DNA of 46,936 nucleotides. Source: a virus. Shown one piece after another: positions 14,282 through 15,187 of the stretch. The notes under the pieces are model-generated. The model saw only the letters and a program-made list of their open reading frames with translations. It searched no databases and had not been told where the DNA came from. The stretch is taken from IMG/VR virus record IMGVR_UViG_3300028173_000017; one strand, written 5' to 3'. Position numbers and translations under genes: made by a program. Positions within the stretch are counted from its first letter, which is position 1, and every line of letters begins with the position of its first letter.

Positions 14282-15187
14282 GTGGGGGACATTATTGGAT
14301 ACGCCAAGATCTCAAATCTATACAAAGACCAAAACATCCTGCTTTTCAAGGAGTGTTATGCCATGGAGAAAGTTCATGGCACATCGGCACATATCCGTTA
14401 TACCAACAAGACACCGAAGAATAAGAACAATGCCGTATTGCGATTCTTTTCTGGCGGGTCGAAGCATCAAGAGTTCACCGACTTGTTTTATCAGCAAGGA
14501 CTCATTGACATCTTTCACGAGCTTGGGCATGCTGATGTAACCATTTTCGGTGAGGCATATGGCGGCGCTCAACAGAAAATGTCGCACACATATGGACCAA
14601 AACTACTCTTCATCGCATTTGAAGTCAAACTCGGCAATGAATGGTTGCCTGTTCCTCGGGCTGAAGAGTTTGTCCTTAAGTTTGGGCTTGAGTTCGTTCC
14701 ATATGAACGGATCCCAGCCAACCTTGCGGCAGTCACGATTGAACGAGATAAACCGTCTCGGGTTGCCAAACGCCGAGGTATCATCGAGGATAAAGTATCT
14801 GAAGGTGTCGTGCTCCGGCCAATCGAAGAGGTTGCAATGCCGAGCGGTAAGCGACTGATGGCAAAACACAAGACTGCTGAGTTTTCTGAGCGGGCATCGA
14901 AAGGTGACACCATCTTGGATCCCGATGCAAGGAAGAAGCTGAATGGCGCCCAAGCAATTGCTGAAGAGTGGGTTACCGATATGCGCCTGGAGCATGTGCT
15001 TGACAAGTTCCCGCAAGATGTGGGTTACGCTGACATGCAGAAAATCATTCCTGCAATGATCGAAGATGTCATGATCGAAGGTGAAGGCGAGTTTGAGCCA
15101 ACCCGAGAGGTAAGGAAAGCAATTGGTGCTCGAGCTGCAAAGCTGTTCTCGATTCACTTGCGAACAAAATCATGGGGAGATAAGTAA
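14282..15187 (+). CDS. Rnl2-family ATP-dependent RNA ligase
   Basis: motif I EKVHGTSA at the same N-terminal distance as T4 Rnl2 KIHGTN; GTG start; 301 aa. Confidence 0.7.
   Translation: MGDIIGYAKISNLYKDQNILLFKECYAMEKVHGTSAHIRYTNKTPKNKNNAVLRFFSGGSKHQEFTDLFYQQGLIDIFHELGHADVTIFGEAYGGAQQKMSHTYGPKLLFIAFEVKLGNEWLPVPRAEEFVLKFGLEFVPYERIPANLAAVTIERDKPSRVAKRRGIIEDKVSEGVVLRPIEEVAMPSGKRLMAKHKTAEFSERASKGDTILDPDARKKLNGAQAIAEEWVTDMRLEHVLDKFPQDVGYADMQKIIPAMIEDVMIEGEGEFEPTREVRKAIGARAAKLFSIHLRTKSWGDK

Follow-up and report, generated by a model that had tools for sequence, protein, structure and literature searches.

RNA-repair genes and proteins sharing an N-terminal tag in a large uncultivated phage

The stretch of DNA analysed here (the window; 46,936 bp, IMG/VR record IMGVR_UViG_3300028173_000017) comes from a large uncultivated phage. 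Around an RNA ligase gene it also encodes a second ligase, a P-loop kinase, two phosphatase-like proteins, a CCA-adding enzyme and tRNAs (Table 1). Do these genes form one distributed toolkit for the healing and sealing of RNA ends, as a sequence-only reading had proposed? Our best explanation, to which we give about even odds (probability roughly 0.5), is that the window is an accessory-gene region holding two separate sets. One is a conventional RNA-repair set, consisting of the Rnl2 ligase, the mini-ligase, the CCA-adding enzyme, three tRNAs and a tmRNA. The other is a set of tagged proteins that would be loaded into the capsid and injected as cargo.

Table 1. Position and description of the features in the window
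Feature	Position (bp)	Strand	Remarks
Minimal Rnl2-like ligase, 219 aa	1362-2021	+	nucleotidyltransferase domain only; PF09414 match
tRNA-Gly(GCC), tRNA-Arg(UCG), tRNA-Thr(GGU)	5194-5423	+	each with encoded CCA
Major-vault-protein-like (MVP) protein, 870 aa	5552-8164		MVP shoulder, vault repeat and SPFH matches
Tagged protein, function unknown	8253-8930	+	start MNNNLREFVNEVLSD; regular-expression scan only, not in profile matches
'WGPLLYD' domain protein without clear tag	10857-11483	+	first of the four-gene block 10857-13491
Tagged HExxH protein (LHEIQHWNQH)	11485-12138	+	start MSSLITFIKRILTE
Tagged HAD fusion	12140-12970	+	tag (1-14), ~90-aa 'LYHRT..VYFS..DDEFPDGE' domain, 182-aa HAD phosphatase (DFDDT)
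Tagged 'WGPLLYD' domain protein	12967-13491	+	start MKLLREYIEILLE
Promoter-like sequence 5' of the Rnl2 gene	14245-14266	+	TGATATAAT (14245-14253) and TATAAATA (14259-14266); consensus match alone, absent from the list of the consensus scanner
Rnl2-family ATP-dependent RNA ligase, 301 aa	14282-15187	+	GTG start; nucleotidyltransferase domain and Rnl2-type C-terminal domain
tmRNA	24626-24985	+	tag peptide ANDNSEYSYAQAA; ARAGORN; Rfam RF00023 (92 bits, E 1.3e-34)
Class II CCA-adding/poly(A) polymerase family enzyme, 583 aa	31837-33588	+	PolyA_pol head domain; phrog_2244
Tagged 'WGPMLYD' domain protein, function unknown	33588-34244	+	start MNVLQNYVRQVLTE
Tagged P-loop kinase, Pnk/zeta clade	34241-34978	+	start MKMLRQYIRRVLRE; GGPASGKST; Zeta_toxin and AAA_33 matches
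Calcineurin-type metallophosphoesterase	35736-36482	+	Metallophos (2.5e-9); phrog_1649 (9e-49)

Ligases, CCA-adding enzyme and tRNAs

The product of the Rnl2 gene matched the RNA_ligase family PF09414 (1.4e-10, 42.1 bits; cut-off 27) and the 'RNA ligase' family phrog_548 (1.4e-27, covering 5-328 of 341). Its score against TIGR02307, Rnl2 (1.5e-9, 37.8 bits), lay far under the equivalog cut-off of 197 and it is therefore a divergent member. In the alignment with T4 Rnl2, K30 of the EKVHGT motif was placed opposite K35 of the T4 enzyme and residues 172-268 opposite T4 residues 203-299; motifs III, IIIa, IV and V read FGEAYG, IAFEV, EGVVLRP and MAKHK. The family matches and the aligned catalytic lysine bear out the earlier call of an Rnl2-type ligase with EKVHGTSA as motif I, and the gene is predicted to encode a divergent but complete Rnl2-family RNA ligase. 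With T4 Rnl2 (gp24.1; PDB 2HVQ) it has nucleotidyltransferase motifs I, III, IIIa, IV and V and the helical C-terminal domain in common. However, the identity is just 27% and the window ORF begins with GTG. The gene setting differs as well: T4 Rnl2 is located in the head-gene region, whereas the window gene heads a purine/NAD+ salvage block, with a GMP-reductase-like gene beginning one base past it and NAD+ salvage genes next. Lys30 is the expected site of adenylylation, and the predicted activity is the sealing of nicks (3'-OH/5'-PO4) in duplex or stem RNA. From the work of the Shuman laboratory, nick sealing in duplex RNA is the Rnl2-type activity, and the ligase repairing the tRNA anticodon loop in T4 is Rnl1. 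IMG/VR contained 33 orthologues at 39-51% identity, plus one at 91%.

The mini-ligase scored 1.8e-7 against PF09414 (31.9 bits; cut-off 27). It contains KLDGS, FFEFNG, EGVVCK and FKVK, all of which are invariant across its family; among 33 sequences the invariant residues were K30, D32, G33, E97, G100, E176, G177, K194 and K196. The accessory domain on which the complete ligation pathway depends, either the Rnl2 C-domain or the N-terminal OB domain of Rnl5, is absent: the 219-aa protein ends 23 residues past K196 of motif V. Its family counts 566 representatives, almost all of them ~200 aa long, and among the phage records it was confined to huge phages. A PDB search with the single mini-ligase sequence gave no match. 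All motifs of the second, minimal 219-aa KxDG ligase described earlier were thus recovered and its catalytic residues are complete. Both ligases are predicted, from their conserved residues, to be intact ATP-dependent RNA-ligase-type enzymes that have kept the catalytic lysine.

The MKTYPS start of the mini-ligase was considered as a capsid-targeting sequence (CTS) and rejected. Throughout the family of ~200-aa ligases the residues M1, Y4, P5 and I7 are conserved, and the start is therefore assigned to the ligase fold; the start of T4 Rnl2, MFKKYSSL, was read as a similar family N-terminus.

The product of 31837-33588 matched the PolyA_pol head domain PF01743 (8.7e-35) and the tRNA nucleotidyltransferase family phrog_2244 (1.2e-56), and GGAVRD, DYDLAT and EDDVNRRD in its translation were read as the GGxVRD, DxD and RRD motifs. 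As it falls under the NCBIfam equivalog cut-offs, the assignment covers CCA adding, A adding and poly(A) polymerase activity without separating them. A tag-like segment (SLTESFLRMNILLEK) is present at about residues 385-399, followed by an uncharacterised C-terminal domain of ~185 aa. The last bases of the gene abut or overlap the ATG of the tagged gene at 33588. Each of the three tRNAs has a 3' end made up of an encoded discriminator base and CCA. Both elements of the sequence-only reading, the CCA-adding enzyme and the three CCA-encoded tRNAs, were recovered here.

Distributed RNA-repair kits in jumbo phages have already been catalogued (Iyer 2021, PMC7824862). Since such kits of big phages are published, the ligase/CCA/tRNA set is regarded as ordinary: one more example of a documented theme, and minor by itself. 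Features common to the jumbo-phage kits (PMC7824862; Burroughs and Aravind 2016) and the window are Rnl2-family ligases, with several paralogues (e.g. XacN1), a PNK-like kinase, HAD and calcineurin-like phosphatases, nucleotidyltransferases, tRNAs and NAD+ salvage. Unlike in those kits, the HAD protein belongs neither to the PKN-HAD nor to the SAK-HAD family by Pfam, and the kinase and HAD protein carry an N-terminal tag and lie in arrays of tagged genes. Among those ORFs of the window for which a Pfam or PHROG scan was made, no RlaP, RtcB or 2H enzyme was found.

Kinase and phosphatases

For the kinase, both the position and the GGPASGKST motif given earlier were correct. Zeta_toxin (PF06414; 5.6e-15, 55.7 bits, gathering threshold 22.3) was its highest Pfam match, above AAA_33 (5.7e-11). 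Residues K33, S34, T35, D52, R177, R181 and R187 are invariant in its family, as are a DGTGG motif and the RN..R lid. The profile alignment places vNpDD of the kinase opposite VNRDD of Pnkp1; we take this NPDD to be the equivalent of NRDD in T4 Pnk, with the catalytic Asp after the P-loop. The top structural match was the Clostridium Pnkp kinase, zeta toxins scoring about equal, and by sequence profile adenylate and UMP kinases were nearly level with Pnkp1. Two families annotated as 'polynucleotide kinase', phrog_415 and phrog_505, were matched in the window. A dNMP kinase, an outcome that the sequence-only reading had held against its own proposal, was not what we found. The catalytic Asp is kept and the best structural match is Clostridium Pnkp; the protein is not an NMP or dNMP kinase, and we predict a hydroxyl-phosphorylating kinase of the Pnk/zeta clade.

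In T4 Pnkp, Clostridium thermocellum Pnkp and Capnocytophaga Pnkp1 the arrangement is different. Here 21 kb separates the kinase gene from that of the phosphatase, a helical insert of ~80 residues is present in the kinase, and no ligase or Hen1 is fused or adjacent to it. Nor is there a fusion or operon with a 3'-phosphatase; the genes next to it encode a WGPLLYD protein and the CCA enzyme. The likeness of the window enzymes to Pnkp is not exclusive, as zeta toxins and acid phosphatases reach similar scores. From the toxin kinases Zeta, PezT and AvrRxo1 the kinase is set apart by its phage setting and by its links to a CCA-adding enzyme and an exonuclease, and an antitoxin partner was not noticed. 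These links are of several kinds. In the window the kinase and the CCA enzyme lie in a block of overlapping genes. In one ORF that is open to the contig end (P0027), the tag and the kinase follow a region like the C-terminal part of the CCA enzyme (44% identity, E 1e-20). In relatives the kinase has an exonuclease or other genes as neighbours, and in two loci (L051 and L005) the adjoining gene encodes an RNase T-like exonuclease. The overlap, the fusion and the arrays that also hold a tagged CCA enzyme and RNase T-like exonucleases make tRNA or RNA ends the most plausible substrate of the kinase.

The earlier assignment of a HAD phosphatase with DFDDT also holds. DFDDT corresponds to the DxDxT nucleophile, and the HAD core was modelled with a pLDDT >90 over residues 110-276 (AF2). 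The only HAD-like Pfam match over its cut-off was DUF2608 (27.9 versus 22.6 bits), the Hydrolase and HAD models staying under theirs; the fusion product also matched phrog_415 (9e-13). No match was obtained in a single-sequence PDB search, nor by tblastn against 50,697 phage records. The ~90-aa N-terminal domain had a pLDDT of about 50, so that no fold could be assigned to it. In a relative with 89% identity the HAD is a stand-alone protein of 182 aa that bears its own tag. Other tagged HADs carry the motif FCDMDGVLVDF, by which, in our reading, they resemble NT5C-type nucleotidases.

The Metallophos and phrog_1649 matches agree with the calcineurin-type metallophosphoesterase reported earlier. 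The sequence-only reading had also foreseen that the phosphoesterases might best match enzymes that do not act on nucleic acids, and this was so in part. For the metallophosphoesterase none of the matches was specific to nucleic acids, and its membership of any repair pathway is not supported; for the HAD a plant acid phosphatase was the best fold match, narrowly ahead of Pnkp phosphatases.

The shared N-terminal tag

Six proteins in the window open with the 14-residue sequence M-x-L-L-R-E-Y-I-R-x-L-L-x-E: the kinase, the HAD fusion, the HExxH protein, two 'WGPLLYD' proteins and one of unknown function. In 100 shuffles no tagged ORF start was seen (6 in the window). The domains downstream of the tag are unrelated to each other. 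The CTS-like N-termini that had been noted on the kinase and HAD are therefore real, and more widespread than was claimed. Two of the tagged protein types gave few clues: the HExxH protein had no Pfam match, and for the WGPLLYD protein neither a domain profile search of the PDB (even at E 10) nor tblastn against the 50,697 phage records gave a match.

Codons of the tag vary between copies, which indicates selection on the peptide. A repeated DNA element was rejected, the copies differing at synonymous positions. It was also rejected that the tag is an integral part of the kinase fold: homologues in HTVC008M and Melnitz lack it, and in AF2 models it forms a separate, low-confidence, amphipathic helix that is not packed on the domains. 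Homologues with the same domain vary in the presence of the tag (P0168-P0173 versus P0170 and P0174-P0176), and this is likewise the case for the HAD. In two proteins (P0055 and P0028) the tag sits at a fusion junction. All 34 non-redundant tags end in (L/I)xE (LxE in 30, IxE in 4), and in 32 of them this lies 6-7 residues past an aromatic residue. In distant relatives a tag profile scan detected arrays with 11 tagged genes (L051) and with 9 (L056); contigs with tagged arrays include IMGVR_UViG_3300025133_000063, 3300012953_007463 and 3300031603_000013, ENA ERZ27316312 k141_187544 and JGI Ga0634390_00015. Such arrays include a CCA-adding enzyme and an RNase T-like exonuclease; the gene at L056:2216-3841, inside a tagged array, encodes a PolyA_pol-family enzyme with start MKIKKSQLRRIIRE. 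A weak ART-PolyVal match was present in the repertoire of tagged proteins.

The function of the CTS and processing at (L/I)xE have been described (PMC9026906, PMC3012670, PMC5694885). In T4, IPI-III and Alt carry a short N-terminal peptide on otherwise unrelated proteins of clustered genes (PMC9026906), as is the case here. IPII and IPIII begin MKTYQEFIAE|A. Compared with MKLLREYI..LLxE|, this CTS has M1, K2, E6, the aromatic residue 7, I8 and the (L/I)xE end in common, in a peptide that is too short for statistics. Based on this likeness, the tagged enzymes may be delivered with the DNA. The tag would dock each enzyme onto the prohead core and the prohead protease would remove it at (L/I)xE, a site of the T4 prohead protease type. 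The mature enzymes would then be ejected with the DNA and could act ahead of any phage gene expression.

Some observations speak against capsid targeting. The tag has 14 residues and also occurs internally, at domain junctions, whereas the T4 CTS has 10 and is strictly N-terminal. A T4-type late promoter (TATAAATA) was not found 5' of the tagged operons; they carry the motif GATATTTAK, which is common to other genes too. Unlike the T4 internal proteins, the putative tagged cargo consists mostly of enzymes of 100-450 aa. No structural genes were detected in the window, and no structural module in the fetched flanks; in the flanks of tagged arrays, PHROG scans identified a glycosyltransferase, an exonuclease and a helicase and nothing else. 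No cultured phage bearing the tag was found in the phage records, megablast of 12-20 kb against these records gave no match, and a full-text literature search for the tag sequence yielded no relevant paper.

The repertoire also resembles the polyvalent proteins of phages and conjugative elements, for which injection along with the DNA has been predicted (Iyer et al. 2017, PMC5512222). ART-like domains, HExxH peptidase-like proteins, a zeta-like kinase, nucleases and GNAT-like domains are the points of likeness (PMC5512222). However, a polyvalent protein is one giant polypeptide, whereas here most domains are encoded by separate genes with a tag each, and in the occasional two-domain fusion the tag is retained where the domains meet. 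We tentatively propose, with less confidence than the main reading, that an uncultivated aquatic family of large phages loads a hypervariable enzyme arsenal by means of the 14-residue tag, as an injected kit for tRNA-end repair and host manipulation. The arsenal would comprise the Pnk/zeta kinase, HADs, the CCA enzyme, RNase T-like exonucleases and the ART-like, HExxH and WGPLLYD proteins.

Alternative readings and implications

A single distributed pathway of kinase, HAD, metallophosphoesterase, both ligases and CCA enzyme would need activities that are all plausibly encoded in the window. Pnkp enzymes are among the top structural matches of kinase and HAD, the two 'polynucleotide kinase' PHROGs were matched, and the Rnl2 gene lies about 800 bp past the tagged HAD block, both here and in a relative with 90% identity. 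In jumbo phages Rnl ligases are combined with PNK and HAD enzymes (PMC7824862). The genes do not travel together, however. Co-occurrence in related phages had been suggested as a check, and within 10 kb of the Rnl2 orthologues (39-51% identity) the kinase, HAD, mini-ligase and CCA enzyme were found in 0 of 33 loci and the metallophosphoesterase in 1. Recognised RNA-repair genes do lie near Rnl2 orthologues on other large-phage contigs, namely HAD_SAK_2 (8 loci), Thg1 (7) and R2K ATP-grasp (12), and this favours the preferred reading of a conventional repair set. The phage isolates with kinase homologues were not among the genera listed for the Rnl2 matches (a listing that omits 3 genera and 7 records), and no PF09414 ligase adjoined the kinase in distant relatives. 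Metallophosphoesterases of this family occur widely in phages (197 records), whether or not a ligase is present, and the duplex-nick specificity of the Rnl2 type does not fit anticodon-loop repair, which in T4 is carried out by Rnl1. Given this lack of co-occurrence and the ambiguous matches of kinase, HAD and metallophosphoesterase, the data do not add up to an integrated five-enzyme pathway, and we consider it unlikely. What stands of the joint repair kit in the sequence-only reading is the ligases, the CCA enzyme and the tRNAs; the healing role of the other three enzymes has partial support at most.

The kinase and HAD could also be unrelated to RNA, as small-molecule effectors or nucleotide-pool enzymes in a plastic accessory region: a zeta-like kinase of UDP-GlcNAc or NAD, and a HAD nucleotidase or protein phosphatase. 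The ranking of Zeta_toxin over AAA_33, which counts against the preferred reading, would fit this, as would the best BFVD matches of the kinase, which are 'Zeta toxin domain' segments of phage proteins of 700-1500 aa. Zeta-like kinases are known in injected polyvalent proteins (PMC5512222), one homologue is a Nudix-kinase fusion (P0035), and genes for purine and NAD+ metabolism abound in the window. On the HAD side there are matches to DUF2608, the Legionella effector Lem4 and acid phosphatases, and the NT5C-like motif. We nevertheless find this reading doubtful in view of the fusion and operon with the CCA enzyme, the adjoining RNase T-like exonuclease, and the presence of a KxDG protein (DUF6267) in the sequence fetched around kinase homologues at 16 of 80 loci, and also in HTVC008M. 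That the tag is a docking or oligomerisation helix, building one enzyme complex or loading a cage of the MVP-like protein, is the least probable of the alternatives and rather improbable. Its amphipathic, unpacked helix and internal copies suit such a role, and the MVP-like gene is directly upstream of the first tagged gene. However, relatives of the MVP-like protein in IMG/VR were limited to a near-identical contig and did not occur in the fetched stretches of tagged-array loci. The invariant (L/I)xE end and the M-K-x-hydrophobic-x-E-aromatic-I start fit the logic of the T4 CTS and its protease; a zipper needs neither. The ligases are untagged and in distant relatives unlinked to tagged genes, which weighs against the preferred reading.

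If the tag is a capsid-targeting signal, a simple sequence rule would list the injected proteins of uncultured phages from metagenomes, for which virion proteomics is normally required. A CCA-adding enzyme, kinases and phosphatases could then be pre-packaged, and both the T4 internal-protein/Alt paradigm and the polyvalent-protein idea would be extended. The phage could begin to mend tRNAs damaged by the host, or to neutralise immune signals, as soon as its DNA enters. Two uncharacterised domains, WGPLLYD and LYHRTS..DDEFPDGE, consistently accompany the tagged kinase and HAD and for that reason merit study.

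RNA ligases, 3'-end enzymes and their neighbours

The window is coding nearly throughout, on the + strand. The Rnl2-type RNA ligase recognised in the sequence-only reading was borne out: the product matched Pfam RNA_ligase PF09414 (1.4e-10, over the cut-off) and, almost over its full length, PHROG 548 'RNA ligase' (1.4e-27), with a weak match to TIGR02307 'Rnl2 family' (37.8 bits, cut-off 197). In comparison with T4 Rnl2 (reference sequence from NC_000866), the catalytic K35 corresponds to K30, within EKVHGT. Motifs III (FGEAYG), IIIa (IAFEV), IV (EGVVLRP) and V (MAKHK) are also present, and the Rnl2-specific C-terminal domain of the window ligase pairs with residues 203-299 of the T4 enzyme. 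No DNA-level likeness to the window was found among phage records. The closest Rnl2 protein in these records (48% identity) is that of the 485-kb uncultured phage LR745208.1, which also carries the nearest-but-one mini-ligase.

The second, minimal KxDG ligase was likewise found as described. An exhaustive HMMER search yielded 566 cluster representatives, nearly all of about 200 aa, in which K30, D32, G33, E97, G100, E176, G177, K194 and K196 are invariant. These residues, the PF09414 match and the short length of the family members show that the mini-ligase is catalytically intact and consists of the nucleotidyltransferase domain only. Among phage records the family occurs in huge phages only: XacN1, four uncultured phages (485-642 kb) and Lak phages.

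Promoter-like sequence (TGATATAAT ... TATAAATA) lies between the homing endonuclease gene and the Rnl2 gene. The ATG of a GMP-reductase/IMPDH-family gene is one base past the ligase stop codon, followed by genes for NMN adenylyltransferase-Nudix (NatV-like) and nicotinamide phosphoribosyltransferase (NadV-like). Together with a short adenylosuccinate synthetase, these make up a purine and NAD+ salvage block directly 3' of the ligase gene. The NadV and NatV pair matches a phage pathway that rebuilds NAD+ and has been described as countering defences that deplete NAD. Scattered among the accessory genes are several that resemble homing-endonuclease genes (NUMOD3, HNH) and one that is TnsA-like/DUF7487.

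Features of the window and of related loci (L0xx, fetched contigs of relatives; P0xxx, metagenomic homologues)
Feature	Position	Strand	Remarks
Mini-ligase	1362-2021	+	219 aa; passes PF09414
Vault-like protein	5552-8164	+	870 aa; directly upstream of first tagged gene
Tag-bearing ORF starts	8253, 11485, 12140, 12967, 33588, 34241		
HAD fusion	12140-12970		276 aa
Its ~90-aa N-terminal domain	12182-12439		stand-alone homologues P0168-P0176
Homing endonuclease	13513-14238	-	separates Rnl2 gene (downstream) from tagged block
Other homing-endonuclease-like or TnsA-like genes	25480-26340, 40822-41436, 21123-22007	+	
Same set	27188-27748	-	
Rnl2-family RNA ligase	14282-15187	+	GTG start, 301 aa
Salvage block	15189-18778, 22016-23032	+	
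tmRNA	24626-24985	+	ARAGORN; Rfam RF00023, 92 bits; tag peptide ANDNSEYSYAQAA
GH25 lysozyme	26222-27211	+	
CCA enzyme, C-terminal domain	33037-33588		~185 aa
DUF2201 protein	39429-40763	+	
WGPLLYD domain	10857-11483, 12967-13491, 33588-34244		
WGPLLYD domain, relatives	L003 10740-11315; L051 3300-3878; L056 5093-5668; L048 3125-3742		also C-terminus of P0073
Second tag flavour	L051 7618; L056 2216; L052 1217; L003 16003		
DUF6267 protein	L010 3206-4438; L060 5105-6340		L010: HTVC008M, 3.4e-135
KLDG-bearing ORF	L052 13721-14899		apart from DUF6267 proteins; no Pfam match
GATATTTAK	2036, 8240, 9179, 10844, 21110, 31800, 42662	+	
GATATTTAK	14215, 27860	-	

IMG/VR contained 34 loci with Rnl2 relatives. 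One was syntenic, at 91% identity; the remaining 33, at 39-51% identity, were examined over flanks of up to 10 kb. In none of these 33 was the ligase accompanied by the kinase, HAD, mini-ligase or CCA enzyme of the window, and a metallophosphoesterase homologue was seen in one (L021). The recurrent neighbours were an ATP-dependent DNA ligase and an R2K ATP-grasp protein (12 loci each), the HAD domain of 'Swiss Army Knife' RNA repair proteins and a PurA-like protein (8 each), and a Thg1-family protein (7); these are therefore recognised RNA-repair contexts, with partners differing from those of the window.

A distributed RNA-repair kit has been described as a concept for jumbo phages (Iyer et al. 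2021, PMC7824862), where it comprises Rnl1/Rnl2 paralogues, PNK, HAD and calcineurin-like phosphatases, nucleotidyltransferases, tRNAs and NAD+ salvage. The healing and sealing toolkit proposed for the window stood in part. The motifs of the kinase, HAD, metallophosphoesterase and CCA enzyme and the three CCA-encoded tRNAs are all present as claimed, and the sealing and 3'-end rebuilding set (two ligases, CCA enzyme, tRNAs, tmRNA) is solid and ordinary; the kinase and HAD are plausible healing enzymes by fold, but conserved linkage to the ligases was not seen. The metallophosphoesterase had been counted in as well; its family is widespread (197 phage records of many kinds) and has no RNA link. 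The kit is a further example of an already known sort of phage RNA-repair kit. After an internal tag-like segment, SLTESFLRMNILLEK, the CCA enzyme carries an uncharacterised C-terminal domain; the homologues found for it were all from L001 and L002, two close relatives.

The kinase and the HAD fusion

Forty-seven kinase homologues, every one metagenomic, have in common the P-loop, an Asp that follows it by about 20 residues (in NPDD), a DGTGG motif and an RN..R..GGR lid. NPDD compares with NRDD in T4 Pnk. An Asp downstream of the P-loop marks hydroxyl-phosphorylating kinases (Pnk, zeta, CPT kinases), which argues against an NMP or dNMP kinase, the latter having been named as the assignment that would speak against repair. 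In structural comparison, the Clostridium Pnkp kinase came first, followed by PSTK (14.5), zeta toxin (13.6), Kti12 (13.5) and T4 Pnk (13.1); NMP kinases scored about 12.8. A search of the viral structure library gave 'zeta toxin domains' within phage proteins of 700-1500 aa as its top matches. These comparisons place the fold in the Pnk/zeta clade.

Alternatively, the kinase and HAD may be effectors that act on small molecules, like the zeta-toxin or nucleotidase types of polyvalent proteins (PMC5512222). The kinase is also tied by genomic context to tRNA 3'-end enzymes, through three links. In the window and in an 89% relative, the kinase gene overlaps with that of a 218-aa protein, and this in turn with the CCA-enzyme gene. 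In the metagenomic protein P0027, encoded by a frame still open where its 1.3-kb contig ends, the C-terminal region of a CCA enzyme is joined to the kinase; this region shares 44% identity with residues 296-400 of the window's enzyme (E 1e-20). Two distant contigs have an RNase T-type exonuclease beside the kinase, and a third has a PolyA_pol-family enzyme in the kinase's array.

The fetched kinase flanks of Pelagibacter phage HTVC008M and of 16 of the 80 IMG/VR kinase loci hold a DUF6267 protein, whose KWDG motif resembles motif I of covalent nucleotidyltransferases. Some copies begin MKSYNQYLAEA, much like the T4 capsid targeting sequence (CTS). In L052 the cluster order is kinase, HAD, metallophosphoesterase, HIGH nucleotidyltransferase and KxDG protein.

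The HAD protein is a fusion: its HAD part corresponds to a separate 182-aa protein in the 89% relative, and its first ~100 residues to stand-alone homologues (84-105 aa) that carry the motifs LYHRTS, EVYFS, GYG and LDDEFPDGE.HYWV. This motif pattern recalls H-Y-E ADP-ribosyltransferases; the AF2 model of the domain was of low confidence. A similar small tagged protein (L051:4545) had a weak ART-PolyVal match (E 9e-4).

A shared N-terminal tag

CTS-like N-termini had been noted on the kinase (MKMLRQYIRRVLRE) and HAD fusion (MKLLREYIGMLLAE). They are indeed present and extend further, for instance to the ORF after HAD (MKLLREYIEILLE): a pattern scan found this 14-residue tag at six ORF starts, compared with 0 in 100 shuffles. 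The kinase and HAD belong to this tagged set, an organisational unit other than that of the ligases. The tag is a modular peptide, since its copies differ in codons, the domains behind it are unrelated (kinase, HAD, HExxH protein, two 'WGPLLYD' proteins, one unknown), it is present in some and absent in other homologues of one domain, a copy sits at the junction of the two-domain fusions P0055, P0028 and P0027, and both AF2 models show it, at low confidence, as a helix on its own.

A 25-tag profile was used to scan 13,766 candidate N-termini (window and all fetched loci). Beside the kinase of distant relatives there were 11 (L051), 9 (L056) and 4 (L048) consecutive tagged genes. By motif or weak Pfam match, their putative cargo comprises, among others, WGPLLYD and HExxH proteins, HAD phosphatases, an RNase T-type exonuclease, a PolyA_pol/CCA-family enzyme with the variant tag MKIKKSQLRRIIRE and possibly an ART-PolyVal domain. 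The same arrays hold a second tag flavour, MK(I/L)(T/K)..(Q/K)L(R/K)..(I/V)(K/R)(E/K), which heads the CCA-family enzyme of L056. In the non-redundant set all 34 tags end in LxE (30) or IxE (4), located 6-7 residues past the aromatic residue in 32. No phage isolate carries the tag.

In T4, propeptides of 10-19 residues direct internal proteins that are otherwise unrelated into the prohead core, with targeting depending on residues 4 and 7 and processing on 8 and 10; the prohead protease cleaves after a Glu and the cargo is ejected into the host (PMC9026906, PMC3012670, PMC5694885). IPII and IPIII start MKTYQEFIAE/A and IPI starts MKTFKEF...ITE/A (slash before the final A). The tag is close to these in M1, K2, hydrophobic 4, E6, aromatic 7, I8 and the terminal (L/I)xE, and the T4 internal proteins, like the tagged set, are a plastic cluster of diverse proteins with only the N-terminus in common. 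This resemblance and the genomic pattern make capsid targeting the best explanation for the tag, a putative signal by analogy with T4. The tag may instead act as a docking helix, serving either a complex or the vault-like protein; relatives of the latter were found in IMG/VR only in the near-identical contig. On the capsid-targeting reading, the tagged set, including kinase and HAD, is probably capsid-delivered cargo, and the system would be a new variation on the T4 CTS/internal-protein principle. A full-text search on the tag sequence found no description of it in the literature.

The vault-like protein matches the major-vault-protein shoulder (4.6e-21), the vault repeat (1.1e-8) and SPFH/Band 7. 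The WGPLLYD domain, (S/G)WGP(L/M)LYDvAME...G.GltPDR.sVS..A.nVW.yY...R.DV, had no match in Pfam or PDB. All fetched contigs that were checked and had an identified tagged kinase (L001, L003, L005, L048, L051 and L056) yielded a homologue; L007 and L052 yielded none. The domain's gene neighbours that of the tagged kinase or HAD both in the window and in L003, and in P0073 the domain is fused to HAD.

An upstream motif

GATATTTAK occurs in 9 copies (0.57 expected), 8 of them in the short gap before a gene start and four beginning exactly 13 nt ahead of the ATG; the copy at 14207-14215 (-) is inside the listed homing-endonuclease ORF. This motif, common to other genes as well, heads the tagged operons, not TATAAATA, whose minus-strand matches mostly coincide with GATATTTAK sites. 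GATATTTAK may serve the phage as a promoter or as an initiation signal. Elsewhere the window encodes a GH25 lysozyme that has a peptidoglycan-binding domain, and a DUF2201 protein, which is a putative metallopeptidase and has a VWA-like domain.
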